A stretch of 64,000 nucleotides of DNA. It comes from Chromatiales bacterium. Lineage in GTDB: Bacteria > Pseudomonadota > Gammaproteobacteria > SZUA-140. The stretch's first letter is position 1. Every line of letters begins with the position of its first letter. A program made the translations under genes and the position numbers. The notes beneath the pieces were generated by a model, which was not told the DNA's origin, made no database searches, and saw only the letters and a list, made by a program, of their open reading frames with translations. The DNA is taken from positions 737 to 64,736 of the forward strand of contig JBJHCZ010000011.1 of NCBI GenBank assembly GCA_050486285.1, read 5' to 3'. Below are positions 29,112-47,196 of this stretch, piece after piece.

Positions 29112-29122
29112 CGCCGCCGGCC

Positions 29123-30400
29123 GTGCCGCTGATCATCGACAGGAGACTGAACGGCAAGAACAAGAGCGCCGTAAACCGGCAGCGCTTCATCCGCCGCTTC
29201 AAGGGACAGATTCGCAAGGCGGTCTCGGAGGCGGTCTCGGAGCGCAGCATCACCGACATCGACTCCGGCGAGAAGATCAATATCCCGGCGCGCGACATCA
29301 GCGAGCCGACCTTCCGCCATGGCGCCGGCGGCGAGCGTGACCTGGTACTGCCGGGCAACGACGAATACATCGCCGGCGACCGTATCAAGCGGCCGCCGGA
29401 CGGCGGCCCCGGCCGCGGTACCCGCGCAAGCCGTGACGGCGAAGGCATGGATGACTTCGTGTTCACGCTGTCGCGCGAGGAATTCATGGAGTTCTTCTTC
29501 GAGGACCTCGCCCTCCCCGACCTGATCAAGACCCGCCTCGCGACCACCGTCGACTTCAAATCAGTGCGCGCCGGCTGGTCGCGCGAGGGCATTCCGTCGA
29601 ACATCAACGTCATCCGCTCACTGAAGGGCGCGCTGTCGCGTCGCATCGCGCTGGGCTCCGCCTTCGACCAGCACCGCGAGCGCGTACAGGCGGAACTCGA
29701 CGCGCTGCGGAAGGCGCCGGCGGACGACGACGGGCAGCGGGAGGCGCGCATCGCCGAACTGGAGGCCGAGATCGCCCGCCTCTCGCGCAGCATCGAGGCG
29801 ATCCCGTTCATCGACACCTTCGATCTGCGCTACAACAACCGTATCCGCCAGCCGCGACCGACGACGCGCGCGGTGATGTTCTGCCTGATGGACGTTTCCG
29901 GGTCGATGGACGAGGAACGCAAGGACATCGCCAAGCGCTTCTTCATCCTGCTCTACCTGTTTCTGACCCGTAACTATGAGCACACCGAGGTCGTATTCAT
30001 ACGCCACCACACCACCGCCAAGGAGGTCGACGAGCAGGAGTTCTTTCACTCGCGGGAGACCGGCGGCACGGTGGTCTCCAGCGCGCTGGAGCTGATGCAC
30101 CAGATCATCACCTCACGCTACCCGACCGCGGACTGGAACATCTACGCCGCCCAGGCCTCGGACGGCGACAACTGGAACGACGATTCGCCGTTGTGCCGCA
30201 GCCTGCTGACCGGAAAAATCATGCCGCTGCTGCAGTACTTCGCCTACGTCGAGATCAAGCCCGACGAACACCAGAGCCTGTGGCGGGAATATCTGTCCGT
30301 CCGTGAGCGTCACCGCAATTTCGCGATGCAGCGCATCGACGGCCTGGCCGACATCTACCCGGTTTTCCACAAGCTGTTCCGGCGGAAGACCGCGGCATGA
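29123..30400 (+). CDS. yeaH: YeaH/UPF0229 (DUF444) protein
   Basis: [35 protein letters not shown] matches the YeaH N-terminus. vWA-like C-terminal part. Start inferred as GTG 12 nt after the prkA stop (no ATG available). Confidence 0.8.
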
Positions 30401-31890
30401 GCCCGGGCTACCTCTCGGAATCCTCGGAATGGACCTTCGACCTGATCGATCGGTACGAGCAGGAGATCGGCCGCGTCGCTGCGGATTTCGGCCTCGACAC
30501 CTGGCCGAACCAGATCGAGGTCATCAGCGCCGAGCAGATGATGGATGCCTATTCCTCGATCGGCATGCCGGTCAGTTACCACCACTGGTCCTTCGGCAAG
30601 CAGTTCCTGAACGTGGAGCAGCGCTACCGCCGGGGCCACATGGGCCTCGCCTACGAGATCGTCATCAACTCGAATCCCTGCATCGCCTACCTGATGGAGG
30701 AGAACAGCATGATGATGCAGGCGCTGGTGATCGCCCATGCCTCGTTCGGCCACAACTCGTTTTTCAAGGGCAATTATCTGTTCCGCACCTGGACCAGTGC
30801 CGACGCGATCATCGACTACCTGCTGTTCGCCAGGAACTACATCGCGGAATGTGAACAGCGCCACGGCGAGGAGCAGGTCGAACTGTTCCTCGATTCCTGC
30901 CATGCGCTGATGAATTACGGCGTCGATCGTTACAAGCGCCCCTCGCCGCTGTCAGCGAAGGAGGAGGCGCAACGCCAGAAGGAACGCGAGGCCTATCTGC
31001 AGGCGCAGATCAACGACCTCTGGCGCACGATACCGAAGCGGGAATCCGCGGAGAGCGCCCGTGGCGAACAGCGCTTCCCGGCGGAGCCGCAGGAGAACCT
31101 GCTCTATTTCATCGAGAAGAACGCCCCGCTGCTGAAACCGTGGCAGCGCGAACTGGTGCGCATCGTACGCAAGATGGCGCAGTACTTCTATCCCCAGCGC
31201 CAGACCCAGGTCATGAACGAGGGCTGGGCCACGTTCTGGCACTACACGATCATCAACCGACTCTATGAGGAGGGCCTGGTCAACGACAGCTTCATGATGG
31301 AGTTTCTCCAGACCCATACCAACGTGATCCACCAGCCGCCGTACAACAGCGAGTACTACAGCGGCATCAACCCCTACGCGCTTGGCTTCGGCATGATGCG
31401 CGACATCCGCCGCATCTGCGAGGCTCCGACCGACGAGGACCGCCGCTGGTTCCCGGACATTGCCGGCAGCGACTGGCGCAAGACCCTCGATTTCGCGATG
31501 CGCAACTTCAAGGACGAGAGCTTTATCGCGCAATACCTGTCGCCGCGGCTGATGCGGGAGATGAAGCTGTTCAGCGTGCTCGACGACGACCGCAAGCGCA
31601 AACTCGAGGTCACCGCGATCCATGATGATGCCGGTTATCGCCTGGTCCGGCAGGCGCTTGCCGAACAGTACAATCTCGGCAGCAACGAGCCCAATATCCA
31701 GGTCTGGGATGTCCGCCGTGACGGTGACCGTTCCCTGACCCTGCGCCACAGCCAATACCGGCGCCGGCCGCTGCATGCCAACATCGATGAGGTGCTCAAG
31801 CACGTCGTCCGCCTGTGGGGTTTCAATGTGCGGCTCGAGGTCGTCGATACCGACGGCCACGTCGCCCGCACGCATGAATGTGCCGCCTGA
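30397..31890 (+). CDS. ycgB: SpoVR family protein (YcgB-like)
   Basis: 497 aa with conserved SpoVR blocks ([33 protein letters not shown]). ATGA overlap with yeaH. Confidence 0.9.
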
Positions 31891-31988
31891 ACGCGACTGA
31901 CGCGGCCGCGCGCCCTCTTTCCGTCATGTAAGTCCGCGCCGGCCACGCCGGCGGCCACGGATCACCGCGATCCGACTATAATAGCCCG

Positions 31989-33722
31989 ATGCTGAGATAT
32001 TCCCTGGCAGGACTGCTGTTGTTGCTGGCATCGACGGCTGCCTGGTCGCAAACCCCGGAACTGGAAATCGAGATCATCGGCGTCTCCGGCGACATGCTCG
32101 CCAACGTGCAATCCGGCCTCAGCCTGTACCTGCAGCGCAACCATCCGCTGCTCGGCGAATCGCTGATCCGCCGCCATCACAACAATGCTGCCGCCGAGAT
32201 CCGCAAGTCGCTGGAACCGTTCGGCCACTATCATGCGAAGGTGGAAGCCTCCCTGGAACAGGACGGCAACCGCTGGCGCGCGCGCTATCGCATCGATCCC
32301 GGCGAACCCGTCCGCATACGCGGCCTCGACCTGCGCATCGAAGGACCCGGTGCCGACGATCCGGCCTTCCTCCGCTGGCGCGCGGGCTGGCCGCTGTCGC
32401 CCGGCGGCATCCTGCTGCACCGCCCCTACGAGGATGCCAAGGGTCGACTGCTGCAGATCGCCCGGGAACGCGGCTATGTCGAGGGCGCGCTGGTGACACA
32501 CCGGATCCTGGTCGACCTTGAAGCGCGCCATGCCGATATCGAGCTGCGCTACCTCACCGGACCGCGCTACACCTTCGGCGAGATCCTGATCGACCAGGAG
32601 GAATTCGATGAAGATTTCCTGCGCCGCTTCCTGAATTTCGACAGCGGCGACCCCTACGACGCCGCGCAACTGCTCGCCCTGCGTCGTGCGTTCGCGGACA
32701 GCGACTACTTCGAGCGCGCCGACGTGATGCCGATGCACGAACTCGCCGTTGACGGACAGGTTCCGGTCCACATCGTGCTGCGACCCCGCAAGCGCAAGCT
32801 GTATACTGCCGGCCTCGGCTATTCAACCGATACCGGCGCCCGCGGCCGCCTGGGATTCGAGGAACGGCGCGCGAATCAGTATGGGCATCGCTACGGCAGC
32901 ACGCTGCGCGTCTCCGAAATCCAGTCGAGCCTGACCGCGCGCTATTACGTTCCGCTCGAGCATCCGACCACCGATGTCCTGACCTGGAGCTTCATCGTCC
33001 TCGACGAGGAGACCGACACCACCGACCGCACCACCGCATCGGTCGGCGCCGACATCACCCAGCAGACCGGACAATGGTTGCGATCGACCGGCCTCAGTTA
33101 CGAATGGGAGCAGTTTACGATCGCCGATATCGAAGAACGCAGCCTGCTGCTGATCCCGAGCATCCGCTGGCAGCGGGTGAAGGCCGACCAGCGCATCCTG
33201 ACCCGGCAGGGCTGGCTCTTCAGCATCGGCTTCCGCGGCGCCTCCGAACAGGTGCTGTCGGATGCCTCCTTCCTGCAGACCCGCAGCCACGCGAAATATA
33301 TCACCGGCGTCAGCGAACGATCCCGCCTGCTGTTGCGCGCCTCCGGCGGCGCCAGCTGGACGCCCGAGTTTGCCGAGCTGCCGACCTCGCAACGCTTCTA
33401 CGCGGGCGGCGACCAGAGCGTGCGCGGCTATGCCTACAACTCGCTTGGCCCGGAAGACGACCTCGGCCGGGTCATCGGCGGGCGTCACCTGCTGGTCGGC
33501 AGCATCGAATACGAATTCGACATCCTGCCGCGCACCGCGGTTGCTGCCTTCTATGACGCCGGCAATGCCTTCAACGGCGACGATTTCAGGCCGCAAGCGG
33601 GCGCCGGCGCGGGGTTGCGATGGAAGACGCCGATCGGCGCCGTGCGCCTCGACCTGGCCCAGGCGTTGAGCAAGGACGGCCGGCCCTGGCGCCTGCACCT
33701 GACCCTGGGGCCGGACCTGTGA
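31989..33722 (+). CDS. tamA: Translocation and assembly module outer-membrane subunit (Omp85/TamA family)
   Basis: Signal peptide, three POTRA-like repeats and a 16-strand Omp85 barrel ending ...RLHLTLGPDL. 577 aa. Confidence 0.7.
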   Translation: MLRYSLAGLLLLLASTAAWSQTPELEIEIIGVSGDMLANVQSGLSLYLQRNHPLLGESLIRRHHNNAAAEIRKSLEPFGHYHAKVEASLEQDGNRWRARYRIDPGEPVRIRGLDLRIEGPGADDPAFLRWRAGWPLSPGGILLHRPYEDAKGRLLQIARERGYVEGALVTHRILVDLEARHADIELRYLTGPRYTFGEILIDQEEFDEDFLRRFLNFDSGDPYDAAQLLALRRAFADSDYFERADVMPMHELAVDGQVPVHIVLRPRKRKLYTAGLGYSTDTGARGRLGFEERRANQYGHRYGSTLRVSEIQSSLTARYYVPLEHPTTDVLTWSFIVLDEETDTTDRTTASVGADITQQTGQWLRSTGLSYEWEQFTIADIEERSLLLIPSIRWQRVKADQRILTRQGWLFSIGFRGASEQVLSDASFLQTRSHAKYITGVSERSRLLLRASGGASWTPEFAELPTSQRFYAGGDQSVRGYAYNSLGPEDDLGRVIGGRHLLVGSIEYEFDILPRTAVAAFYDAGNAFNGDDFRPQAGAGAGLRWKTPIGAVRLDLAQALSKDGRPWRLHLTLGPDL

Positions 33723-36700
33723 TGCGGCTTGCGCGCTGGTCACCGCTGCTTGCGCTGTTGCTCGCGGCAGTCCTGGCGCTCGTCCTGGTCTCGACCGAGC
33801 CCGGTCTGCGCCTGGCCTTCCGCCTCGCGCAGCCCTTCATCCCCGGCGATCTCGACGCCGGCGAACTGCGCGGCCGCCTGATCGGGCCGCTCGAGATCTC
33901 GGAGCTGCGTTTCCGCAACCCCGAAACCGATGTCCGCATTGGCCGCCTTGCCCTCGACTGGCGCCCCCTCGCCCTGCTCGCAGGCCGCGTCTCGATCAGC
34001 GAGCTGGATGTCGATGATATCGACATCAGGCTGACATCGACGGCCGGCGGCGGGCGCCCGCGCGGCGAAGCGGCAGCAGTCGACTTCGCGCTGTCCCTGC
34101 CGATGCGGATCGCGGTCGAGCGCCTTGAGATTCGGCATGCGACGCTGCGGATGCCGGATCGCGATGCATTGACGCTGGATCGCCTCTCGTTGCGCGCCGA
34201 TGCGCGTGACGACGCGCTGTCGATCGAGGCCTTGCGGCTCGAGGCAATGGATTTCGTCATCGATGCCGAGGGCCGGCTGCCACTGACGTCGGACGGTCCG
34301 CTGCGCCTTGCCGTGCGCTTCGACGGCGTCGTCGACGGCCTGACCTGGCGCGGCGGCACGACGCTGTCCGGCGCCCCGGCCGCGATCAACGCCAGGCTCA
34401 CGCTGGAGAGTCCGATCGGCGCGCTCGGCGAGGCCGCCATCGAACCGCTGGCCGGGCCGCCGCGCTGGCAGGCCTCGGTCGGCGTCGATCCGTTCACGCT
34501 GACGGATGTGCTGGCGAACAGCCGGCCGCTGCGTATCCGCGCGGCCGAGATCGAGGCCGCCGGTACCGGCGCAATCCTCGACGCGCGCGGTCATCTCGCG
34601 ATCAGCGACGATGAATTCGGCGCCTGGGGCATCGACTTCGACGGCGGCATCGACGGCGATCGTCGCGAACTGCAACGCATCGTCGTCACCGCGCTCGATG
34701 GCGATGCCCGCATCTCGGGCCGCGCCGCCCATACCGCCGATGGCGACCGCTTCGATGCCGAACTCGAATGGGAACGGTTAGCCTGGCCGCCGACCGGCGC
34801 AGCGCAGATCCGGAGCCCGCGCGGCAGTGCCGTGCTCGACGGCCGTCCCGACGATTATCGCTTCTCGACCACCGGGCGCTGGGAATTCGCGGCGCTGCCG
34901 CCGATGGATGTCTCCGTCCAGGGTGGGGGGAACAGCGACGGGGCCGTCATCGACGAACTGCGCGGCGACTTCCTCGACGGGGCATGGCACGGCGCAGGTC
35001 GCATCGACTGGCGACCGGCGCTGCGCTGGGCCTTCACGCTGTCGGCCGACGGGGTCGACCCCTCGCCACTCCATGCCGAGGCTGCGGGTCGTCTCGACGG
35101 CCGCATGCGGATCGACGGCAGCTTCGATGACGACCTCACGTTGTTCATCGATGTCGAGTCCCTCGCGGGCGAGCTGCGCGATCATCCCTTCGATGGCCAT
35201 GCCCGCATCAGCATCGATGCCGGCACGATCGGCGTCGAAGACCTGACCGTACACTCCGGCGGCATCGAGTTGCAGGGCAACGCGCGCTTCAATGAGGACT
35301 GGGATGTCGCCTGGCGACTCGATGCCGGAAATTTCGCGGCCTTGCTCCCCGGACTCGGCGGGTCCGCGCGTTCGCAGGGCACGCTGAACGGCCCGCCGGA
35401 GGCCCTGCGCGCATCGTTCACGTTCGATGCCGAAGGGCTGGCGTGGGAAGACCATCATGTCGGCCGGCTAGGCCTCGGCGGCAATCTCGCGCTCGGCAGC
35501 GACGGCGAGTGGGAGGTCTCGCTGGCCGCTGACGAGGTGCGCGTCGCCGGACAGCAACTCGGTCGCATCACGCTCGACAGTACCGGCACGTCCCGCGATC
35601 ACGATGTCCTGCTGCGCATCGAGCATCCGGGACATCGCTTCGAACAGCGGCTGTCCGGCGCGCTCGAAGACGATCACTGGCACGCGCGTCTGCATCAGGG
35701 GCGGCTCGAACAGACGGATATCGGCGCCTGGTCGCAGGCCGCCAGCGCTGCGCTGTCGATCTCTCTCGAAGCGGCCGATCTCGACGATTACTGCCTGCGC
35801 CAGGAGGATGCCGAAGTCTGCCTCCGCGCAAGTCGCGCCGGCGAGACGCTCTCGGCGAGGCTCGACTGGCGCGACTTCGACCTCTCGCGCCTCGATCCTT
35901 GGTTGCCGAATCCGCGCGCCGGCCTGGGCGGCGCGACTCGCGGCGTCGTCGAGGTCCAAAGCAGCGAAGGCGGCATCGGCCCGTTGCGGGTGGAGGCGCG
36001 CAGCGATCCCGGGGCGCTGCGTTATCCGCTGCCGCCGCACGGCGAGATGCATGCGCTCGAATTCGAATCCATCGCGCTGGATGCGGAGGCCGATGACGAA
36101 CACGGGCTGCGCGGCGCGCTGCGCCTCGTCCTCAATGACCGTGAACGCCTAGAAGTCGGACTTGCGCTGCCCGCATGGCGCGCGGCAGCGCCCGTGCCCG
36201 CGGCGGACGATGCCCTGCAGGGCCGGATCGACCTCGAGCTGCGCGATCTGACCGTGCTCGCGCTGATGCTCCCCGAATGGCAGGCCGGCGATGGCGCCTT
36301 CACTGCCGGCATCGGCTTCGACGGGACGGTCGCCGCGCCGCGCATCGACGGCGCGATGGCCGCGAAGCTCGACCACCTGGAATTCACGCGCTTCGGTGTC
36401 CGTCTCGACGAGATCGACATCGACACCCGCATCGGCGGCAACGAATGGACGCTGACGGGCGGCGCGCTCATGGGCCAGGGCCGGATCGACCTCGCCGGAC
36501 GCGGGTCGGCGCGCACCGCCACCGACTGGAGCGGCGAGATTTCCCTCAACGGCGAGAACCTGCAACTGCTGCGCATGCCGACTGCGGAGATCACGGCGAC
36601 GCCGGCGCTGGCGTTGCGCGTCAATCCGCGGGAACTGACATTCGACGGCAGTCTGCGCATCCCGCGCGCGCGTCTGGAACCGGTGGCGCCGGAATCGATC

Positions 36701-37477
36701 GTCAGCGCCTCCAACGACGTCATTATCGTCGGCATTCCCGAGCCGGAATCGCCGGCGGCGCCGTTCGATGTTCACGGCCGCATGGAACTGATCCTCGGCG
36801 ACCAGGTCAGGCTGATCGGCATGGGCTTCGAGGGACGGCTGACCGGTCGCTTGCTGCTGATGCTCGCGCGCGACGGCAGCCTGATCGGCCAGGGCGAGAT
36901 TCGCGTCGCCGACGGCCGCTACCGCGCCTATGGCCAGAACCTGTCGATCACCCAGGGCCGCGTGCTCTATGCGGGCGGCCCGCTCGATAATCCCGCGATC
37001 GACATCATCGCCTCGCGCATGCGCGGCGAAATCGAGGTCGGCGTGCGCGTAACCGGCACCGCAGAACATCCGCAGGTCGCGCTGTTCTCGAATCCGGCGA
37101 TGGATGACGCCGACGTGCTGTCCTATCTGATCCTCGGCCGTCCGATGGACCAGGCCGGCGAGGGCGACGGCCAGTTGCTGCACCAGGCCGCGACTTCGGT
37201 CGCGCTGGTCGGCGGCGAGGCGCTGGCGGAACGCATCTCCGACCGCTTCGGCATCGCCGAAGTGTCAATCGAGGCCGGCGACGATGCCGCCGACGCCGCG
37301 CTGGTACTGGGCCGGGCGCTGTCGCGGCGGCTCTACGTGCGCTATATCCAGGGCCTGGTCGAGAACACCAGCGCCTTCCAGTTGCGCTACCAGCTCAGCG
37401 ACAAATGGACGATCGAGACCGAAAGCGGCACGCGCGCGGGCGCGGGCGCCGATATCCTCTATACTCTCGAACGATGA
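33722..37477 (+). CDS. tamB: Translocation and assembly module inner-membrane subunit TamB (DUF490)
   Basis: ~1250 aa with an N-terminal signal-anchor, long beta-rich repeats and a DUF490-type C-terminus (..LRYQLSDKWTIETESG..). Start overlaps the tamA stop. Confidence 0.7.
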   Translation: MRLARWSPLLALLLAAVLALVLVSTEPGLRLAFRLAQPFIPGDLDAGELRGRLIGPLEISELRFRNPETDVRIGRLALDWRPLALLAGRVSISELDVDDIDIRLTSTAGGGRPRGEAAAVDFALSLPMRIAVERLEIRHATLRMPDRDALTLDRLSLRADARDDALSIEALRLEAMDFVIDAEGRLPLTSDGPLRLAVRFDGVVDGLTWRGGTTLSGAPAAINARLTLESPIGALGEAAIEPLAGPPRWQASVGVDPFTLTDVLANSRPLRIRAAEIEAAGTGAILDARGHLAISDDEFGAWGIDFDGGIDGDRRELQRIVVTALDGDARISGRAAHTADGDRFDAELEWERLAWPPTGAAQIRSPRGSAVLDGRPDDYRFSTTGRWEFAALPPMDVSVQGGGNSDGAVIDELRGDFLDGAWHGAGRIDWRPALRWAFTLSADGVDPSPLHAEAAGRLDGRMRIDGSFDDDLTLFIDVESLAGELRDHPFDGHARISIDAGTIGVEDLTVHSGGIELQGNARFNEDWDVAWRLDAGNFAALLPGLGGSARSQGTLNGPPEALRASFTFDAEGLAWEDHHVGRLGLGGNLALGSDGEWEVSLAADEVRVAGQQLGRITLDSTGTSRDHDVLLRIEHPGHRFEQRLSGALEDDHWHARLHQGRLEQTDIGAWSQAASAALSISLEAADLDDYCLRQEDAEVCLRASRAGETLSARLDWRDFDLSRLDPWLPNPRAGLGGATRGVVEVQSSEGGIGPLRVEARSDPGALRYPLPPHGEMHALEFESIALDAEADDEHGLRGALRLVLNDRERLEVGLALPAWRAAAPVPAADDALQGRIDLELRDLTVLALMLPEWQAGDGAFTAGIGFDGTVAAPRIDGAMAAKLDHLEFTRFGVRLDEIDIDTRIGGNEWTLTGGALMGQGRIDLAGRGSARTATDWSGEISLNGENLQLLRMPTAEITATPALALRVNPRELTFDGSLRIPRARLEPVAPESIVSASNDVIIVGIPEPESPAAPFDVHGRMELILGDQVRLIGMGFEGRLTGRLLLMLARDGSLIGQGEIRVADGRYRAYGQNLSITQGRVLYAGGPLDNPAIDIIASRMRGEIEVGVRVTGTAEHPQVALFSNPAMDDADVLSYLILGRPMDQAGEGDGQLLHQAATSVALVGGEALAERISDRFGIAEVSIEAGDDAADAALVLGRALSRRLYVRYIQGLVENTSAFQLRYQLSDKWTIETESGTRAGAGADILYTLER

Positions 37478-37496
37478 TCCCGCCCGGATTCACGCC

Positions 37497-38357
37497 ATGA
37501 CCGCGGGCCTGCTGCTCGCCACCGATCTCGATCGCACGCTGATCCCGAACGGGCTCGAGGCGGAATCGCCGGCGGCGCGGCCGCTGTTCCGCGCGCTGTG
37601 CGCGCAACGGCGGCTGATCCTGGCCTATGTCAGCGGCCGCGACCTCGGGCTGCAACTCGACGCGATCGAGCGCTGGCAGCTGCCGATGCCCGACTTCGCG
37701 GTCGCCGACGTCGGCACGACGATCTATCGCCTCGGTGACGGCGAACGCGAACCATGGCCGGCATGGCGCGACGAGATCGCCGCCGACTGGCAGGGCTTCG
37801 ACACTGCCGCCCTGCAGGATCTGCTCGGCGTCCCGCCGCCGCTGCGCCTGCAGGAGGCCGAACGGCAGAAGCCATTCAAACTCAGCTACTACGGACCGCC
37901 CGTGGCGCCGGAATCGGTGCTGGCGGGCATGCGCGCTGCGCTCGCGCAGCGCGCCATTGCCGCCGCGCTGATCTGGAGTGTCGACGAAACGCGCGGCGTC
38001 GGCCTGCTCGACGTCATACCGGCGCGCGCGACCAAGCTGCATGCGATCGAATTCCTGATTCACAGGCTGGCGCTCGACAAAAAGAGGAGCGTCTTCGCCG
38101 GCGACAGCGGCAACGACCTGCCGGTGCTCGCCAGCGATGTGCCTTCGGTGCTGGTCCGCAACGCCGACGACGGCGTGCGCCGCGAGGCGGTGCGGCAGGC
38201 AAGCGACCGTGGACATGCCGATGCGCTCTATCTCGCGCGCGGCGAATTCATGGGGATGAACGGCTGCTACGCCGCTGGTATACTCGAGGGCCTTGCTCAC
38301 TACTTGCCCGAAACACGACAGTGGCTGGAAGCGGCCCGAACGGAACATCGCCGGTGA
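37497..38357 (+). CDS. HAD-IIB family phosphatase (sucrose-phosphate/mannosyl-3-phosphoglycerate phosphatase-like)
   Basis: Motif I DLDRTL at the N-terminus, cap-type IIB architecture and GDSGNDL (motif IV). 286 aa. Lies 20 nt after tamB. Confidence 0.6.
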   Translation: MTAGLLLATDLDRTLIPNGLEAESPAARPLFRALCAQRRLILAYVSGRDLGLQLDAIERWQLPMPDFAVADVGTTIYRLGDGEREPWPAWRDEIAADWQGFDTAALQDLLGVPPPLRLQEAERQKPFKLSYYGPPVAPESVLAGMRAALAQRAIAAALIWSVDETRGVGLLDVIPARATKLHAIEFLIHRLALDKKRSVFAGDSGNDLPVLASDVPSVLVRNADDGVRREAVRQASDRGHADALYLARGEFMGMNGCYAAGILEGLAHYLPETRQWLEAARTEHRR

Positions 38358-39865
38358 ACGTCCTCGTCATCCTCGGCCACCCGGTCAACGACAGCCTGTG
38401 CGGCGCGCTGGCCGAGGCCTATGCCGACGGCGCGATCAAGTCCGGCCAGCGCGTCGAGACGCTGCGTCTCGGCGATCTCGATTTCGACATCAACTACCCG
38501 AGCGGACGCGAGGATGATCCGGAAGAGGCGGATATCGCGCGCGCGAGAGAGATGATCCGCTGGGCCGATCACCTGGTGTTCGTATTCCCGACCTGGTGGG
38601 GTACGATGCCGGCGCTGATGAAGGGCTTCATCGACCGGATCTTCAAGCCGGGTTTCTCGTTCCGGATGCATGCCGACGGCAGCTGGGACAAGCTGCTGAC
38701 CGGCAAGTCGGCGCAACTGATCACGACGATGGACACGCCGCGCTTCGTCTATCGCTGGATCTACGGGCAACCCGGGCTCAATGCCCTCTCGAAGGCGACC
38801 TTCGGCTTCTGCGGCATCCATCCGGTGAGGACCGCGACCTTCGGCACCGTTTTCAATTCGACGCCGGCCCGGCGGGAACGCTGGCTGGCGCGCGCGCGCG
38901 AACTCGGGCTCGAACTCGCGCGCGGCGTGCCCGATCCGGCCGAGAAGTTCCGCGCCAAGGCGCTAATCTGGATCAAGGCGATGCGCCTGCAATTCTATCC
39001 GATGACCTGGTTCGCCTATACCGTCGGGGCGATGGCGGCCGGCGGCGGCTCGGCGGTCTTCGGCAAGCCCGTGTACTGGCTCGGCTATGCGATCGTCTTC
39101 CTGCTCGAGTTCTGCACCGTGCTTGCCAATGAATATTTCGACTATGACAGCGACAAGCACAACCGCAATGCCAGCCCGTTCAACGGCGGGTCACGCGTGC
39201 TGGTCAGCGGCGAACTCAGTTTCCGCGAGGTGAGGCTCGGCATCGCGCTGACGATGACGGGCTTCCTGATCGGCAGCCTGTGGCTGTTCGCCGCCGCCGA
39301 CGTTTCCGCGCTGAGTCTCGGCGCGGTGTTGTTCGCGGCGCTGGTGCTGTGCATGGGTTATACCGTACCGCCGCTCAAGTTCTCGCATCGCGGCGCCGGC
39401 GAGATCGATGTCGCGGTGACACACAGCTTCCTGGTGATGCTGTTCGGCTGGGTGCTGATGGGCGGCAGCGCGCTCGAAGGCTTCCCGTGGCTGGCGGGCA
39501 TCCCGCTGTTCCTGTCGATCCTGCCGGCGATTCTGCTGTCGGGATTGCCGGACCGGGAGGCCGACGACCTCGCCGGCAAGCGCACGCTCGCGGTGTCGCA
39601 GGGACCGCCGCAGGTGATCCGGCTGGCGATCGCGGTCACCGCGGCCTCGGCGTTGACCGCCACGCTGTGGCATGCCGGCGGCATCGCCGGCGGCATCTAC
39701 GCGGGCGCGGCATGGTTCGTCATTCCGCACGCGCTGTGGCTGATCCTGATGCTGCGCCGTTATCGCGCGAGCTGCGTCGAGGGCGGGCGCATCGACACGC
39801 TGATGATGGTCGCGCTGAGTTACATCCTCTGGTTCGTCACGATCCCGTTCATTCACACGCTGTGA
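38354..39865 (+). CDS. Fusion protein: flavodoxin-like NAD(P)H dehydrogenase (quinone) domain + UbiA-family prenyltransferase domain
   Basis: N-terminal ~190 aa match the Flavodoxin_2/NQO-KefF family (VLVILGHP..SL, FVFPTWWGTMPALMKGFIDR). C-terminal ~310 aa carry 8-9 TM segments with both UbiA Asp-rich motifs (NEYFDYDSD; DREADD). GTG start overlaps the HAD stop (GTGA). Confidence 0.7.
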   Translation: MNVLVILGHPVNDSLCGALAEAYADGAIKSGQRVETLRLGDLDFDINYPSGREDDPEEADIARAREMIRWADHLVFVFPTWWGTMPALMKGFIDRIFKPGFSFRMHADGSWDKLLTGKSAQLITTMDTPRFVYRWIYGQPGLNALSKATFGFCGIHPVRTATFGTVFNSTPARRERWLARARELGLELARGVPDPAEKFRAKALIWIKAMRLQFYPMTWFAYTVGAMAAGGGSAVFGKPVYWLGYAIVFLLEFCTVLANEYFDYDSDKHNRNASPFNGGSRVLVSGELSFREVRLGIALTMTGFLIGSLWLFAAADVSALSLGAVLFAALVLCMGYTVPPLKFSHRGAGEIDVAVTHSFLVMLFGWVLMGGSALEGFPWLAGIPLFLSILPAILLSGLPDREADDLAGKRTLAVSQGPPQVIRLAIAVTAASALTATLWHAGGIAGGIYAGAAWFVIPHALWLILMLRRYRASCVEGGRIDTLMMVALSYILWFVTIPFIHTL

Positions 39866-39886
39866 CGCCAGGCTGAACGGCGCGGT

Positions 39887-42505
39887 TCAGCTCCACGGCA
39901 GTTTCAGTGCCTGCCCCTGCGGGAAGCGCGCGAAGGCCTCGGCCGGCAGCGGGCGCGCGAGATGGAATCCCTGGGCGAGATCGCAGCCGTGGGCGCGCAG
40001 GAACTCGAGCTGGGCGCCGGTCTCGACGCCCTCCGCGATCGTCTTCTGGCCGAGCGCATGCGCCATGCCGATGATCGCGAGCACGACGACGGTGGCGTCG
40101 TTACTGAGCGGGATGTCGCTGACGAAGGAGCGGTCGATCTTGACGTGATCGACCGGAAAGCGCCGCAGATAGCTGAGGCTCGAATAGCCGGTGCCGAAGT
40201 CGTCGATCGAAATCTGCACTCCCATGTCGTTCAGTTCGCGCAGCGCCGACACGATCGCGGCATTGTCGGCCAGCAGGCTTTCGGTGATCTCCAGCACCAG
40301 GCAGCGGGGGTCGAATCCCGTATCGGCGGCGACCCGCCTGACGAGGCCGCCGAAGTCCCTGCCGTGGAACTGTCGGGTCGAGACATTGACCGCGATATTC
40401 TCCAGCGGCAAGCCCTCGTCTCGCCAGCGCACGAACTGCGCCGCGGCCTCGCGCAATACCCACGCCCCGATGTCGCCGATGATGCCGGTCTCCTCTGCGA
40501 GCGGGATGAACTCGGCCGGCGACACCTCCCCGCGGCGGGGATGACGCCAGCGTATCAGGGCCTCGACGCTGACGAAGGCGCCGGTGGCGAGATCCATGAT
40601 CGGTTGATAAAGCAGATGAAACTGCCCCTGATCCAGCGCCCGGTGCAGATCCCGTTCGAGGTCGAGTCGATGGCGCACGCGGGCCGTCATCTCCGCGGTA
40701 TGAAACTGGCAGGTATTGCCGCCCTGCTCCTTCGCGCGGTACATCGCGATATCGGCATTGCGCAACAGCCCGTCGACATCGCTGTCATCCAGCGGATAGA
40801 TCGTCATGCCCATACTCATGCCGACCGTAAAGTCGTAGCCGGCGATATGGAACGGCTCGGCGAAACAGCCGAGGATCTTCTGCGCGACCTGCGCCGCGTC
40901 CTCGGCCCGCGCCATGTCGGTCAGGATCAGCGTGAACTCGTCGCCGCCGAGACGGGCGACGGTATCGTCCTCGCGCACGGCGTTACGCAGCCGCTCGGCG
41001 ACCGCTGCCAGCAGCATGTCGCCGGCGGCGTGACCGAGGCTGTCATTGATGGTCTTGAAACGATCGAGGTCGAGAAAGGCGACGCCGAGCAGGCGGCCGT
41101 GGCGATCTGCCTCCAGGAGGCCCTGGTTCAGGCGGTCGCGCACCAGCACCCGGTTCGGCAGCCCGGTCAATACATCGTGATGGGCGAGATAATGCAGGCG
41201 ATCCTCCATGCGCTTGCGCTGGATCACCGTGCCGAGCTGACCGGCGACCAGCGCCAGCAGCTTGCGCATGCGGTCCTCGCTGGCACGCGGCGCGCGGGTG
41301 AAGAACTCGAGGATTGCGATCGCCTGTTCACCGGCAAAGACCGGCGCGGCGACGCCCGAGCGGTAGCCGGCCTCCCGGGCATGGGAGGTGCGCGGAAAGG
41401 CATCGGCATCATCGAGCTCGCGCATCCAGATGACGCCGCCGGCCTGCCATGCCCTGCCCGGCAGACCCTCGCCCGGCGCGAAGCGGAAACCGAGACTCGC
41501 GCTGCGCAGCGCATCATCACCCGGCTCGCGCTGATACCAGGCCGTGCTGCACTCGAGGTGTCGGCCCTCGTTGTCGGGCAGCCATGCCTGCCCCAGATCC
41601 CACTGGATGACCTCGCAGACCCGTTTCAGGGTGATCTCCAGCGCCGCGTGCAGGCTCTCGGACTGCGCCGCCAGCAATGACACGCTCTCGAGCAGCCGCA
41701 GCTCCTCCTCCGCCTGCTTGCGCTCGGTGATATCGCGCAGGATCAGCGTGTACCGGGGCTGCCCGTTCATCGTCCAGACCGAGACGCTGATCTCGGCCGG
41801 AAACGGCGCGCCGTTGCGGCGACGCGCGATGATTTCCCGGTATTCGCCGCCCTCGCCCGCCGCCACGCCGCCGGGATCCGACGGAATCGGCAGACACTCC
41901 GCGACCCCGAGCGCCAGCAGCATCTCGATGCCGCGGCCGGTCACCTCCTCGTGACGCCAGCCAAAGATGCGTTCCGCGCCGCGATTGAAGACATCGATGC
42001 GGCGCTCCGCATCGATGACGATGATCGCATCGACGGCCATGGTCAGGATCTGGCTGATGCGGAACTCGCTGGCGCGATGCTGGGCCTCGACCCGGATATA
42101 GTCGCGCTTGATCGCGGCGTCGTGAACCTCGCGCCTGATCGCCGGCGCGAGACGCTTGAGATTGCCCTTGATGATGTAGTCCTGGGCGCCGGACTGCATC
42201 GCCTCGACCGCGGCGTCCTCGCCCATCGTCCCGGAGACAAAGATGAACGGCATGTCGAGACCGCGGCGGCGTATCATCGCCAGGGCCTCGGCGCCGGAAA
42301 AGCCGGGCATCGAGTAATCACCGATGACGACCTCCCAGCCGCCATCGTCGAGGGCGCGATCGAGATCGACGGCATTGTCGACGCGCTGGTGGGTGACCTG
42401 ATAGCCGTTGCGCTCGAGCTCCCGGCACAGCAGCAGGACGTCGTCTTCCGAATCCTCGACGATCAGGACACGAATCGGAGTGTTGCCGTCAACGCTCATA
42501 TCCAT
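39887..42505 (-). CDS. Response-regulator receiver-PAS-GAF-GGDEF-EAL multidomain c-di-GMP turnover protein
   Basis: REC domain with phospho-acceptor Asp (VVIGDYSMPG). PAS and GAF blocks. GGDEF (RLGGDEF) and EAL (EITES, DDFGTGYSS) motifs all present. 872 aa. Confidence 0.85.
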   Translation of the reverse strand: MDMSVDGNTPIRVLIVEDSEDDVLLLCRELERNGYQVTHQRVDNAVDLDRALDDGGWEVVIGDYSMPGFSGAEALAMIRRRGLDMPFIFVSGTMGEDAAVEAMQSGAQDYIIKGNLKRLAPAIRREVHDAAIKRDYIRVEAQHRASEFRISQILTMAVDAIIVIDAERRIDVFNRGAERIFGWRHEEVTGRGIEMLLALGVAECLPIPSDPGGVAAGEGGEYREIIARRRNGAPFPAEISVSVWTMNGQPRYTLILRDITERKQAEEELRLLESVSLLAAQSESLHAALEITLKRVCEVIQWDLGQAWLPDNEGRHLECSTAWYQREPGDDALRSASLGFRFAPGEGLPGRAWQAGGVIWMRELDDADAFPRTSHAREAGYRSGVAAPVFAGEQAIAILEFFTRAPRASEDRMRKLLALVAGQLGTVIQRKRMEDRLHYLAHHDVLTGLPNRVLVRDRLNQGLLEADRHGRLLGVAFLDLDRFKTINDSLGHAAGDMLLAAVAERLRNAVREDDTVARLGGDEFTLILTDMARAEDAAQVAQKILGCFAEPFHIAGYDFTVGMSMGMTIYPLDDSDVDGLLRNADIAMYRAKEQGGNTCQFHTAEMTARVRHRLDLERDLHRALDQGQFHLLYQPIMDLATGAFVSVEALIRWRHPRRGEVSPAEFIPLAEETGIIGDIGAWVLREAAAQFVRWRDEGLPLENIAVNVSTRQFHGRDFGGLVRRVAADTGFDPRCLVLEITESLLADNAAIVSALRELNDMGVQISIDDFGTGYSSLSYLRRFPVDHVKIDRSFVSDIPLSNDATVVVLAIIGMAHALGQKTIAEGVETGAQLEFLRAHGCDLAQGFHLARPLPAEAFARFPQGQALKLPWS

Positions 42506-45007: not shown

Positions 45008-45526
45008 TTAGCGAAGCAGTGTGAGCCGCGTCCCGCAGCGGCGGCAGTGGTAACGCGCGTCCTCGTTCAGGATGCGACGATGGCGGCGTGTCGTCAGTTC
45101 ATGGGCCGCGCAGTCGCAGCGATAGGCATACCGGCGCTGCGCGCGCAGCGGTATGCCGTCGAGGTCATAAGCAGCGCCGGCGGCGGGATCGATACCGAAC
45201 GCCGCCATGACCGACCGCCACTCCGGACCATGGGGACGCAGGCGCCGCGGGCGGTGCAGACAGTCGGCGACATAGTGCGCGACCTCGTGCGGCACCGTGA
45301 TTTCGAGATTGTCGCGCGGATACTTCGCGAACAGCCACGGGTTGTAACGGAACTCCCGCTGCCCTCCGCGGACGCGATACATGCCGGCGGCGCGCCCGCG
45401 CAGGTCGAACAGCACCGGCAACATCTCGAAGTCTCGCCGCCAGATGACTGCGGCCCTCAGCAGCCAGTCGCGGGTCGCGGCGATCACTGCTTCGCGCCCG
45501 GCGGCGCCGATCGGCTCGATCGTCAA
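45008..45526 (-). CDS. sprT: SprT-family zinc metalloprotease-like protein
   Basis: ..FDLRGRAAGMYR.. and HEVAHY (HExxH) followed by CxxC..CRRCG zinc ribbon. Only the 3' ~173 codons of track ORF 45008-46150 are supported. TTG start inferred. Confidence 0.55.
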   Translation of the reverse strand: MTIEPIGAAGREAVIAATRDWLLRAAVIWRRDFEMLPVLFDLRGRAAGMYRVRGGQREFRYNPWLFAKYPRDNLEITVPHEVAHYVADCLHRPRRLRPHGPEWRSVMAAFGIDPAAGAAYDLDGIPLRAQRRYAYRCDCAAHELTTRRHRRILNEDARYHCRRCGTRLTLLR

Positions 45527-47196
45527 TTGCCGCCCCCGCCGCCGGCCATATGCACCGTCAGCTGATTGAACGGGATGACCCAGCCATGGCGGTTGCAGGA
45601 CTCGACGGCGAGGCGCTGCATCAGGCGCTGGATGCGAAAATATCGGTCGGCGGCACCCCCGGCGAAGCCGGCGATCAGGAGCAGGTTCAGGGAGGAATCG
45701 CCGGCCTTCGCGAACTCGACATTGAAATGAAGCAGGTGCTCGCCGACATCGCTCTCCCTGAGTCCCGCGCCCACCTCTTCCGCCATGCGCTCGCGGATCG
45801 TCGTCGTGATTGCGGCCTGGTGGCTGTAGTCGAGCCCGAACTCGACGGTGAGGACAAAGCCGCCGGACAGCACCCGCGGCGCAAGCCCGAGGAAGTCCCG
45901 GGTCGCGAAACTCTTGATGCTGCCGAGCACCTGCAGCTGCACGCGCTCGGGCGTCTGCGCGACGATGCGACCGAAGGTGCCGTCCGAAAGCAGCAGCCAG
46001 TCGCCGAGGTCGGCGGGGAACCACGACTCGTCGGCCTCGTAGCGGCGCGAGACATGATCGACCAGCATGCGCAACGGCAGGGTCTGCACACCGCCCTGCA
46101 GTTTCGGGTTCTCCAGCGTCGCGTACATGCCGAGCGTGCGGATACGCCACGGCAGGCCGTCGTAGATGATGCGCTCCCCTTCCCTGACCGGACCGAGGTT
46201 CAGCATCAGTCGCGCCTCGGTCAGAAATCTCGGCAATGAACGCTGCGCCGCGAGCGCCGCGCCGGCCAGCAGGATCAACAGCAGGCCCAGCAACAGCCAG
46301 TCGCCGCGGACGTAGAACACCGCCATGCCGGACAACAGGACGATGATCGTCGTGAACAGGTAGAACAGCAGGTTGCCGACCCGCGCCGGGAACACGCCGC
46401 TCTCCCGCGCGCGCCGCATGACCTGGCGATCGTAGAGGCGTGCCAGCGCGCGCATGCCGAGGTAGACGAACAGCATCACGAGGATCGCGATGAACAGGTT
46501 CAGCACGCGTCCCGACAACAGCGTCTGCAGGCGGTCGAGCGGGTCCTGCTGCGCGGCCGGCGGCGCCAGCACCTGCTGCATCTCGATCTCGACCAGGTTC
46601 AGGCGATTGCGGGCCTCCTGGTAGCGCCGTTGCCAGCGTTGCTCGAGCGTCGAGAAGGCCTCCCGGAGATGGTCGGAGGGCGCATGCTCGCGATTGCGCT
46701 CGATGTTGCGCAAGGCGGTCTCCGCGGCGTCGACACGTTCCTGATAATAGGCCTGCTCATTGCGCAAGCGCTCGAGCCTGCGCGGACGTTCGGTCAGGCG
46801 ACGCAGCTCCAGCAGTACCGGCTCGAATACCGATTGAAGCTCATCGCGCCAGTCGAACGCGGTCTCGGTGCGCACGCCGAACAACCCGAGGTCGACGCTC
46901 TCGGTTGCGAGCAGTTCGAGCGCCGTCTGCAGCGACTCGAGATCCTGCACACGCTGCTCGATCTCGCGCGACAGCCGCGCCTGCTCGCGCTCGTTGTCGG
47001 TCTCGCGCAGCTCCTGGCGCAGTTCTCGCAGATCGGCACGCATCGCGTCCATCGTCTCTACGAGGATCTCGAGATGGCGCCAGCTCTCGGGGGTACGAGT
47101 TTCAGGCGTAGCCTGCGCGACAGCGATTGCGGGCAGCGACCATGCCGCCAGCAACAGCATCAGCAGCCACAGACCACGCCGATTCATCGCAAGCAC
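45523..47196 (-). CDS. Mechanosensitive ion channel family protein (MscS-like) with a periplasmic coiled-coil N-domain
   Basis: Signal peptide, ~200-aa coiled-coil, three TM helices and an MscS beta-domain (..GDWLLLSDGTFGRIV..). 557 aa. Confidence 0.7.
   Translation of the reverse strand: MLAMNRRGLWLLMLLLAAWSLPAIAVAQATPETRTPESWRHLEILVETMDAMRADLRELRQELRETDNEREQARLSREIEQRVQDLESLQTALELLATESVDLGLFGVRTETAFDWRDELQSVFEPVLLELRRLTERPRRLERLRNEQAYYQERVDAAETALRNIERNREHAPSDHLREAFSTLEQRWQRRYQEARNRLNLVEIEMQQVLAPPAAQQDPLDRLQTLLSGRVLNLFIAILVMLFVYLGMRALARLYDRQVMRRARESGVFPARVGNLLFYLFTTIIVLLSGMAVFYVRGDWLLLGLLLILLAGAALAAQRSLPRFLTEARLMLNLGPVREGERIIYDGLPWRIRTLGMYATLENPKLQGGVQTLPLRMLVDHVSRRYEADESWFPADLGDWLLLSDGTFGRIVAQTPERVQLQVLGSIKSFATRDFLGLAPRVLSGGFVLTVEFGLDYSHQAAITTTIRERMAEEVGAGLRESDVGEHLLHFNVEFAKAGDSSLNLLLIAGFAGGAADRYFRIQRLMQRLAVESCNRHGWVIPFNQLTVHMAGGGGGN

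Follow-up and report, generated by a model that had tools for sequence, protein, structure and literature searches.

The window (the whole 64-kb stretch of DNA analysed here) contains four co-directional genes on the forward strand, with gaps of no more than 20 nt. The first two are tamA (31989..33722, +; PF01103, PF17243 and PF07244), which encodes an Omp85/POTRA protein, and tamB (33719..37477, +; PF04357 at 1.3e-56). Pfam confirms both, as the initial annotation had them, and we regard them as syntenic neighbours only. The longest ORF for tamB opens at 33620, and its start is probably the GTG at 33719 or the ATG at 33722, overlapping the tamA stop. The third gene encodes a HAD-IIB/S6PP-family phosphatase of 286 aa (37497..38357, +). 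It begins 20 nt past the tamB stop at 37477, and its TGA stop overlaps by 4 nt the GTG start, at 38354, of the fourth gene, a fusion ORF of 503 aa (38354..39865, +); the coordinates confirm this arrangement as first described. A convergent gene for a response regulator-PAS-GAF-GGDEF-EAL protein (39887..42505, -; Pfam), which is also found in the related locus L001, ends 21 nt from the fusion stop. Scanning positions 31500-40200 for promoters and terminators revealed nothing above shuffled expectation.

The fusion ORF, defined by its GTG start, Pfam domains, full-length homologues and an AlphaFold2 model, consists of an NQO-type reductase domain that two linker helices connect to a 9-TM MenA/UBIAD1-like prenyltransferase domain. 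The linker from the reductase to TM1 (38900..38983, +) appears in the model as helices H171-190 and H195-210. It contains a conserved tryptophan, W206, and leads into an R-L-Q-F-Y-P-M-T-W segment; W206, R211 and F214 are invariant in 120 fusion sequences. The model of both domains is confident (pLDDT 92.5, pTM 0.81), the linker included. Full-length homologues with both domains and the same start, M-x-V-L-V-I-L-G-H-P, occur in all 120 protein clusters listed and likewise at the 80 species-representative genome loci listed, where 2 of the 80 matches are partial. In another assembly (L091), an independent gene caller gives the same 503-aa product, again overlapping the HAD gene. The homologues and this gene call bear out the covalent fusion in one ORF that the initial annotation proposed. 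An artefact, in which a sequencing frameshift or over-extension of the ORF merged two genes, found no support and is ruled out by the conserved full-length homologues and the independent gene call. In addition, a continuous ~503-aa protein with the conserved linker is encoded by hundreds of independent assemblies from several phyla, and the model's confidence through the linker also speaks against two merged genes, so that the chance of such an artefact is negligible.

The N-terminal domain (aa 1-182; 38354..38899, +) is a Flavodoxin_2/NQO-type NAD(P)H:quinone oxidoreductase domain, matching PF02525 at 9.2e-39 and 133.6 bits against a gathering cut-off of 27. Its best solved relative is the NADPH quinone oxidoreductase 3lcm/4f8y, Smu.1420 (8.8e-24, ~30% identity over 181 aa). 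Foldseek matches the domain to 3lcm at an E value of 1.8e-10, with a TM-score on the target of 0.81-0.85, and to NQO2 and NQO1 at E values of 1e-9 to 1e-8. The flavin-site motifs HP-x-x-x-S, P-x-WW...PA-x-KG-x-DR and TT-x-x-TP are all present and align with those of 3lcm. The GHPVNDS loop (38375..38395, +) corresponds in alignment to the phosphate-binding loop at the N-terminus of NQO-type enzymes, and we take it to be flavin-binding as in NQO1-type enzymes; among the 120 sequences its H9 and S14 are invariant and its G8 and P10 nearly so. The signature Flavodoxin_2 motif PTWWGTMPALMKGFIDR (38588..38638, +), whose counterpart in the 3lcm alignment is FPIWWSGMPAILKGFIDR, keeps P79, W81, W82, G83, P86, A87, K90, F92, D94 and R95 invariant in the same set. 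The third motif, TTMDTP (38723..38740, +), is common to the Smu.1420 subfamily and reads TTHNTP in the aligned 3lcm; its T125, D127 and P129 do not vary among the 120. Judging from the family, these motifs would contribute to flavin binding. NQO-type enzymes act as dimers. Smu.1420, NQO1/2, MdaB and YcaK have the same fold and the signature motifs, including TT-x-x-TP. However, they are free-standing and soluble, whereas in the fusion two helices anchor the domain to an enzyme with nine TM helices.

The C-terminal half (38984..39862, +) is a UbiA-superfamily prenyltransferase domain with nine predicted TM helices, as supported by PF01040, hydropathy, the model helices and hhalign. PF01040 matches aa 220-471 at 2.5e-20 and 73.3 bits, against a gathering cut-off of 34.2, and the nine hydrophobic helices given by hydropathy are also helices in the AlphaFold2 model. 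Both Asp-rich motifs are in place: NEYFDYDSD (39128..39154, +) with N259, D263 and D267, and DREADDLAGK (39551..39580, +) with D400, D404 and K409; all six residues are invariant in the 120 sequences. Hydropathy together with the positive-inside rule predicts a cytoplasmic location for the N-terminal domain and for the loops that carry the two Asp-rich motifs. All domain calls of the initial annotation hold: HAD-IIB/S6PP, Flavodoxin_2/NQO-type and a complete UbiA domain with its two Asp-rich motifs.

In a comparison covering three E. coli references and the PDB, the UbiA domain appears closest to MenA/UBIAD1, by resemblance rather than membership. The hhalign probability is 97.8% against E. 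coli MenA (E 1.2e-12), compared with 49.5% against UbiA and 28% against CyoE. The UbiA fold and the motifs N-x-x-x-D-x-x-x-D and D-x-x-x-D-x-x-G-K-x-T-L align with E. coli MenA, in which the segment RDINSDRENGKNT stands opposite the second Asp-rich motif. Among PDB structures, the family profile of the domain reaches UBIAD1 alone, and this similarity is remote (2.7e-8, 36.6 bits). The fusion could be read as an ordinary MenA, the DHNA polyprenyltransferase of menaquinone biosynthesis, with a chance extra domain. JGI annotates it so and names many members DHNA octaprenyltransferase, and the hhalign probability and the weak matches to NCBIfam MenA models point the same way. However, all of these equivalog models are missed (36.2 bits against a cut-off of 346, 30.8 against 264, 26.5 against 522 and 20.2 against 316), which places the scores 5- to 20-fold under every MenA cut-off. 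The best NCBIfam match is instead the unspecific archaeal-type 'prenyltransferase' PRK12884 at 53.5 bits, above MenA at 36.2 bits, and every NCBIfam match of this half is far under its cut-off. In a neighbour-joining tree, the fusion family forms a group well apart from E. coli MenA. Unlike MenA, the fusion has an N-terminal reductase domain and lacks a men gene context; no men gene was found among the neighbours in the 80 loci, and no men family ranks among the most frequent Pfam families next to the fusion. In addition, the hosts include taxa that are not known to make menaquinone, and many of them are, as far as we know, ubiquinone-only. We therefore consider an ordinary MenA improbable.

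The HAD phosphatase carries the motifs DLDRT (37524-37538, aa 10) and GDSGND (38100-38117, aa 202). It exceeds the cut-offs of PF05116 (5.1e-45; 154.4 bits against 20.3) and of TIGR01484 (48.7 against 41.8). Its resemblance to bacterial SPP is supported by the S6PP-family match, by the DxDxT and GDxxND motifs and by orthologues in sucrose clusters, but it stays under the NCBIfam cut-offs of the SPP equivalog TIGR01485 (85.2 against 183.65) and of the SPS C-domain TIGR02471 (99.9 against 209.75). Orthologues with 54-58% identity sit in SPS-HAD-PfkB and GH100-HAD clusters. In Methylobacter (L083), the HAD gene lies between SPS and fructokinase; the pairing with GH100 invertase-like genes occurs in Polyangiales (L086/L087) and in L098/L099, where the GH100 match is faint. 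Because its orthologues lie in sucrose gene clusters, the HAD protein is most likely a sucrose-6F-phosphate phosphatase. SPS, fructokinase and GH100 genes were also looked for across the 64-kb window, with no match.

The initial annotation combined the phosphatase, the quinone reductase and the UbiA domain into a three-activity module with DPPR-synthesis-like logic, and took the coupling to tamAB as a sign of prenylated-quinone or lipid-linked envelope modification. The tight spacing of the four genes in the window, with the HAD stop overlapping the fusion start, fits such a module, as does the recurrence of the order tamA-tamB-HAD-fusion in L001, L003, L005, L091 and L097. We examined the context of the fusion at the 80 loci. 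In this high-GC DNA, calling the longest ORF selects the wrong strand, for example for the HAD gene of L001, and the Pfam census of neighbours therefore undercounts; for this reason, the HAD and tamAB tests were based on tblastn. The HAD gene adjoins the fusion in 3 of the 80 loci and tamAB is near it in 5, all within one close clade whose fusions are 61-88% identical to that of the window, and neither was found in the other 75. In L002, the fusion is intact and 83% identical, but the HAD gene has been deleted, leaving an 83-nt tamB-fusion spacer in which the 3' end of the HAD gene can still be aligned. In L003, L005 and L097, a gene for a membrane protein of 157-176 aa interrupts the HAD-fusion junction, and the 4-nt overlap in the window is the result of loss of this small gene, still present in related genomes. 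The synteny takes in the whole block SpoVR-TamA-TamB-...-ABC-F, with housekeeping genes (SpoVR, ABC-F) at its flanks; this extent argues for vertical inheritance of the block. The sucrose-cluster orthologues of the phosphatase, in Methylobacter, Polyangiales and another lineage, also stand against a shared function, and the fusion occurs in archaea as well, in which we know of no TAM system.

The HAD gene and tamAB thus adjoin the fusion through lineage-specific gene order only, and the comparative data largely refute a three-activity or TamAB-linked module, to which we give very little credence, less than to an ordinary MenA. The neighbourhood survey finds a widespread fusion with no phosphatase linkage, one of the outcomes that the initial annotation named as refuting it, so that neither the phosphatase module nor the envelope-modification system of the initial annotation is supported. 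A 4-nt overlap with a phosphatase gene downstream of tamAB is no evidence of shared function. No conserved neighbour of the fusion was found across the 80 loci. The sole recurrent one is a small SRPBCC/Polyketide_cyc2 protein, adjacent to the fusion in 12 of the 80 loci and in L081, in two subfamilies and two orientations, which was identified on filtered ORFs with jackhmmer and then checked with Pfam. The SRPBCC/Polyketide_cyc2 fold binds hydrophobic ligands.

The fusion is best read as a large uncharacterised orphan family of bacteria and archaea, not as an envelope module. Its hosts span Proteobacteria, Bacteroidota, haloarchaea and other phyla. Halomonas, Thiobacillus and Thioalkalivibrio are among them, which to our knowledge are ubiquinone organisms with no known naphthoquinone. 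Databases give the fusion generic names only, such as the JGI name 'putative NADPH-quinone reductase/1,4-dihydroxy-2-naphthoate octaprenyltransferase'. Literature searches for any account of a Flavodoxin_2-UbiA fusion, or of Smu.1420, returned nothing relevant, and a survey of the UbiA superfamily (PMC5133447) does not mention such a fusion. The initial view that the fusion is undescribed needs qualifying in that it is widespread and automatic pipelines annotate both halves; it stands insofar as we found no experimental assignment of the family. Members of this UbiA subfamily are found in unfused form as well, and the contexts of these relatives gave no pathway clue and no reductase gene nearby. 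Rarely, the subfamily is fused to other redox folds, namely to a PNPOx-like FMN split barrel (P0373, one sequence) or to a DCC1-like thiol-disulfide oxidoreductase (P0363, two sequences). By neighbour-joining, fused and unfused UbiA domains form a star-like tree, which gives no number of fusion origins.

On balance, and by a narrow margin over even chance, we believe that the 503-aa ORF encodes a self-contained bifunctional enzyme that reduces a quinone and then prenylates it. In the first step, the cytoplasmic NQO/Smu.1420-type flavin domain would use NAD(P)H for the two-electron reduction of a free quinone to its quinol; the head group of this quinone is most likely of the naphthoquinone type. 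In the second, the C-terminal 9-TM domain would attach a polyprenyl chain to the quinol, yielding a membrane-anchored prenylquinol, and the Mg2+/prenyl-diphosphate site would lie on the same side of the membrane as the reductase domain. Both domains appear catalytically intact from their Pfam scores and conserved motifs. The geometry fits coupling, since the N-terminal domain and the Asp-rich loops are predicted to be cytoplasmic and the two-domain model is confident. That the UbiA subfamily is fused to other redox folds provides a Rosetta-stone argument for coupling a reductase to a prenyltransferase. MenA takes a hydroquinone as acceptor, and the acceptor of the fusion is, by its similarity to these enzymes, probably a quinol.

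The vertebrate system composed of UBIAD1 and NQO1 (or another reductant), which converts menadione to menaquinone-4, follows the same reduce-then-prenylate logic, and NQO1 is probably the physiological reductant for UBIAD1. Both partners are reached from the fusion, UBIAD1 by the family profile and NQO1, with NQO2, as fold matches of the N-terminal domain. The fusion differs from the vertebrate pair in holding both domains in one polypeptide, in bacteria and archaea. UBIAD1 without a reductant makes no MK-4, because menadione must first become the hydroquinone (PMC4398444). A reductase that supplies the quinol acceptor, as the initial annotation suggested, remains the best available mechanism given the MenA/UBIAD1-like domain and the UBIAD1 precedent, and we infer the coupling of the two activities. 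Counting against this reading are the ubiquinone hosts, the placement of MenA below PRK12884, the rarity of the alternative redox fusions and the star-like tree.

Alternatively, the Flavodoxin_2 domain may be a regulatory or redox-sensing module like KefF/KefG, or a membrane-tethered quinone detoxifier. In that case, the UbiA domain would prenylate its acceptor without prior reduction. KefF itself reduces quinones and, in addition, activates a membrane protein, and the weak PDB matches of the N-terminal domain include the KefF-KefC complexes 3eyw/3l9w (E 0.006). In KefF-KefC and KefG-KefB, a Flavodoxin_2 quinone reductase is likewise physically joined to an integral membrane protein, but the association there is non-covalent and regulatory and the partner is a K+ efflux channel, whereas in the fusion it is covalent and the partner is an enzyme. 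The absence of a nearby reductase gene from the unfused relatives also implies that the prenyltransferase is able to function with no partner of its own. In sequence, however, the N-terminal domain resembles KefF much less than the soluble catalytic quinone reductases, 3lcm being the nearest. In addition, the fusions to other redox folds are more easily explained by a shared need for reducing power, and the nearest characterised prenyltransferases take quinol or hydroquinone acceptors. We regard a regulatory or detoxifying role as rather unlikely, though well worth keeping in view.

Returning to the bifunctional enzyme, we tentatively suggest, as a possibility short of an even prospect, that the family turns free redox-cycling (naphtho)quinones into membrane-anchored prenylquinones. 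The quinones would come from the environment or from turnover, and the fusion would be a prokaryotic single-polypeptide counterpart of the vertebrate UBIAD1 route from menadione to MK-4. The reductase would be fused mainly in aerobes, because the acceptor would otherwise be oxidised and non-prenylatable, and in anaerobes the prenyltransferase would remain unfused. The SRPBCC neighbour would then serve as a lipid or quinone chaperone.

If the mechanism is true, the fusion would represent a new and widespread prenylquinone route, independent of the canonical ubi, men and mqn pathways, in organisms thought to have a single quinone type, and one that bacteria and haloarchaea have shared. That UbiA-type enzymes need a reduced acceptor is a known problem, to which the fusion would be a natural one-protein answer. 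It would also offer an entry point to quinone salvage and detoxification, as well as a compact biocatalyst with which to make prenylquinones. For annotation, the fusion genes should be called neither MenA nor plain 'NAD(P)H-dependent oxidoreductase'.

As for the convergent gene in the window, GGDEF/EAL genes lie downstream of the fusion in 7 of 74 loci. Given how abundant such genes are in these taxa, we judge their recurrence to be compatible with chance and shared ancestry.

In the window, the HAD-IIB phosphatase gene (HAD; 37497-38357, + strand, 286 aa) starts 20 nt past the tamB stop, carries the motifs DLDRT and GDSGND, and matches Pfam S6PP (5.1e-45). Overlapping its TGA stop is the GTG at 38354 that opens a 503-aa ORF (38354-39865, + strand), in which Pfam places Flavodoxin_2 at residues 1-182 (9.2e-39) and UbiA at residues 220-471 (2.5e-20). 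The two Asp-rich motifs of this fusion are encoded at 39128-39154 (NEYFDYDSD) and 39551-39580 (DREADDLAGK). According to the Pfam search, the two genes upstream of HAD encode TamA (Omp85 plus POTRA) and TamB, and the convergent gene downstream of the fusion encodes a response regulator with PAS, GAF, GGDEF and EAL domains. The ORFs and Pfam matches bear out as written what the initial annotation had described here: the HAD, Flavodoxin_2 and UbiA domains, the stop/start overlap and both Asp-rich motifs. No promoter- or terminator-like signal above chance was found between the four co-directional genes (tamA, tamB, HAD and the fusion). For tamB, candidate starts at 33719 (GTG) and 33722 (ATG) overlap the tamA stop, and the longest tamB ORF, from 33620, is probably over-extended by about 100 nt. 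Directly upstream of tamA lie genes for a DUF444 (YeaH-like) and a SpoVR protein (29081-31890, + strand).

The fusion itself is a real and common protein. In a search space of about 5.8 billion proteins, all 120 clusters among the matches listed are full length with PF02525 plus PF01040, at 49-88% identity to the window fusion, and conservation spans both domains and the linker in alignments of 16 and of 120 members. In addition, an independent assembly and gene caller yield the same 503-aa product, overlapping the HAD gene, at a further locus, L091. Because the homologues are full length, the linker is conserved and the L091 product is the same, a frameshift artefact merging two genes is excluded. 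Scanning one genome per GTDB species, we found at least 590 stretches encoding a relative, some of which may be unfused since one search pattern falls in the reductase half. The best 80 of these loci match essentially the whole protein, with partial matches in L074 and L075, and their hosts are Gamma-, Beta- and Alphaproteobacteria, Bacteroidota, Geothrix, Gaiellaceae, Pirellulaceae, Gemmatimonadales and Haloarchaea (Natrialba, Natronorubrum, Natronococcus, Natronomonas and Halococcaceae). Full-length haloarchaeal fusions in L034, L039, L048, L058, L070 and L079 share 45-49% identity with the window protein, which is gammaproteobacterial, a similarity suggestive of transfer of the gene between archaea and bacteria. 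Homologues are labeled 'NAD(P)H-dependent oxidoreductase', 'NAD(P)H dehydrogenase' or 'ycaK' at NCBI, and 'putative NADPH-quinone reductase/1,4-dihydroxy-2-naphthoate octaprenyltransferase' at JGI; a literature search found no description of a Flavodoxin_2-UbiA fusion. The presumed rarity of the fusion therefore gives way to a large, widespread, automatically annotated but functionally uncharacterized family, a variant of known enzyme kinds and of moderate interest.

The initial annotation had further joined HAD, reductase and prenyltransferase into a three-activity module coupled to tamAB. Comparative data contradict this proposal, which we consider very improbable. By tblastn with the window HAD, TamA and TamB against the best 80 fusion loci, with up to 10 kb on each side, HAD was found only in L001, L003 and L005, and TamA plus TamB only in L001-L005, the closest relatives of the window fusion (61-88% identity); none of the three was found in the remaining 75 loci. 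In L002, whose fusion is 83% identical to the window's, tamB ends 85 nt upstream of the fusion, and this spacer (L002:9917-10001) can be aligned to the final ~100 nt of the window HAD gene. The spacer is thus a 3' relic of HAD, most of which (roughly 760-780 bp) has been deleted, leaving the fusion intact. In L003, L005 and the further locus L097, HAD and fusion are separated by a small membrane-protein gene (L003:9461-9988, L005:9482-9988, L097:7872-8345), which the window, L001 and L091 lack. The encoded protein has 157-176 aa, four predicted helices and no Pfam match, and the L097 protein is 39-41% identical to those of L003 and L005. With this gene separating the two in L003, L005 and L097, the 4-nt HAD/fusion overlap of the window, L001 and L091 is a derived state. 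Gene order in L097 is SpoVR-TamA-TamB-HAD-x-fusion...ABC-F, including the SpoVR-TamA order of the window, with the same housekeeping flanks. This synteny looks like vertical inheritance of a chromosomal neighborhood, not a functional cassette.

HAD belongs to a separate, well-populated family of its own. Relatives 54-58% identical to it sit in sucrose clusters, so that the window HAD is most likely a sucrose-6F-phosphate phosphatase. In Methylobacter, a relative lies between the genes for sucrose-phosphate synthase (SPS) and PfkB fructokinase, and in Polyangiales and one other lineage a relative adjoins a GH100 invertase-like gene. Methanotrophs have been described with Sps, Spp and fructokinase (PMC8062543). 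HAD scores fall short of the NCBIfam SPP equivalog cut-offs, and no SPS gene was found within the 64-kb window. In Nitrosococcus oceani, the HAD orthologue carries a fused YcgL domain at its C-terminus (L084:6001-7116, 371 aa).

The closest solved relative of the N-terminal half of the fusion is Smu.1420, which was deposited as an NADPH quinone oxidoreductase (3lcm/4f8y) and matches it at 8.8e-24 with about 30% identity over 181 residues. Both share the GHP...S loop, P-x-WW-x-x-PA-x-KG-x-DR and the subfamily-specific TT-x-x-TP, whose residues are invariant or nearly so across 120 sequences. An AlphaFold2 model of the fusion built on the 120-sequence alignment (mean pLDDT 92.5, pTM 0.81) gave Foldseek matches of its N-domain to 3lcm, NQO2, NQO1 and azoreductases. 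For a domain of this kind, a KefF-like regulatory or a general detoxifying role is conceivable, though we regard it as unlikely.

The C-terminal half has nine hydrophobic helices, and the positive-inside rule predicts that the N-terminus and both Asp-rich loops are cytoplasmic; the reductase domain would therefore be cytoplasmic as well. The sole solved structure reached by the UbiA-domain profile is human UBIAD1 (2.7e-8). With hhalign, the domain aligns with E. coli MenA at a probability of 97.8% (E 1.2e-12), against 49.5% for UbiA and 28% for CyoE. This resemblance might suggest an ordinary MenA, but the UbiA half scores 5- to 20-fold under the cut-offs of all NCBIfam MenA models, and no men gene context was found around the fusion in the best 80 loci. 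Assignment as a MenA equivalog is thus rejected, and an ordinary MenA seems very improbable to us. The best NCBIfam match is the unspecific 'prenyltransferase' model PRK12884, likewise far under its cut-off.

Using only the UbiA domain as query, we scanned 1.84 billion cluster representatives in full with HMMER and obtained 113 clusters at E <= 1e-30. Among the 89 matches spanning the domain nearly end to end, 35 are Flavodoxin_2 fusions, 44 are unfused UbiA proteins of about 290-330 aa starting with Met, and 10 carry another N-terminal extension, several of these probably being truncated fusions. Two of these 10 extensions represent other redox folds, each of them rare: a PNPOx-like FMN-binding split barrel, joined to this UbiA subfamily in two sequences (cluster P0373), and a DCC1-like thiol-disulfide oxidoreductase, joined to it in one (P0363). 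In a neighbor-joining tree, E. coli MenA is separate from the whole group, and fused and unfused lineages are not split apart. Named unfused members (Syntrophales, Omnitrophota, Ignavibacteria, Thermodesulfobacteriota) also occur as isolated genes in unrelated contexts. In this small sample, read by organism name, unfused forms belong to anaerobic lineages, and fused forms mostly to aerobes or haloalkaliphiles (Halomonas, Thioalkalivibrio, Thiobacillus, Nitrotoga, haloarchaea, Pedobacter).

All-against-all ORF clustering of the best 80 loci revealed no conserved neighbor of the fusion; a Pfam census of immediate neighbors agrees, as do the Pfam-annotated loci of Billgrantia and a Burkholderiaceae MAG. 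The only recurrent neighbor is a small SRPBCC/Polyketide_cyc2 gene, absent from the window, which lies immediately upstream of it in 12 of the 80 loci (L013, L015, L019, L020, L023, L026, L029, L032, L044, L045, L053 and L055) and in L081. It comes in two distantly related subfamilies, one divergent to the fusion (Halomonadaceae, Thioalkalivibrio and other Ectothiorhodospiraceae), the other co-directional and nearly overlapping it (Thiobacillus, a Burkholderiales MAG and a gammaproteobacterial MAG). Ligands of SRPBCC/START proteins are hydrophobic, and the Pfam family PF03364 includes the ubiquinone-binding Coq10. The neighbor fits a lipophilic aromatic product of the fusion without being decisive, and could act as a chaperone for a lipid or quinone product.

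Reduction followed by prenylation within one protein is the most economical reading of the fusion. With NAD(P)H and a flavin, the reductase domain would convert a quinone into its quinol on the cytoplasmic face, beside the prenyltransferase active site, and the MenA/UBIAD1-like domain would then prenylate this quinol. The key experimental precedent is UBIAD1, since the microsomal enzyme does not convert menadione to MK-4 unless DTT is present, and the authors of that study concluded that reduction of menadione to the hydroquinone is required ahead of prenylation (PMC4398444). The earlier idea of a reductase feeding quinol to the prenyltransferase survives and is strengthened. Three further observations seem to point in the same direction: the fusion of three redox folds to one UbiA subfamily, the occurrence of fused forms mostly in aerobes or haloalkaliphiles versus unfused forms in anaerobes, and the recurrent neighbor with a hydrophobic-ligand-binding fold.

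Elsewhere in the window, a 557-aa ORF (45526-47196, - strand) without a Pfam match at E <= 0.001 shows, by eye, an N-terminus resembling a signal or TM segment, a charged stretch reminiscent of a coiled coil, and hydrophobic segments. With its 3' end it overlaps the upstream extension of a SprT-like ORF (45011-46150), which probably starts further downstream than the longest reading suggests.
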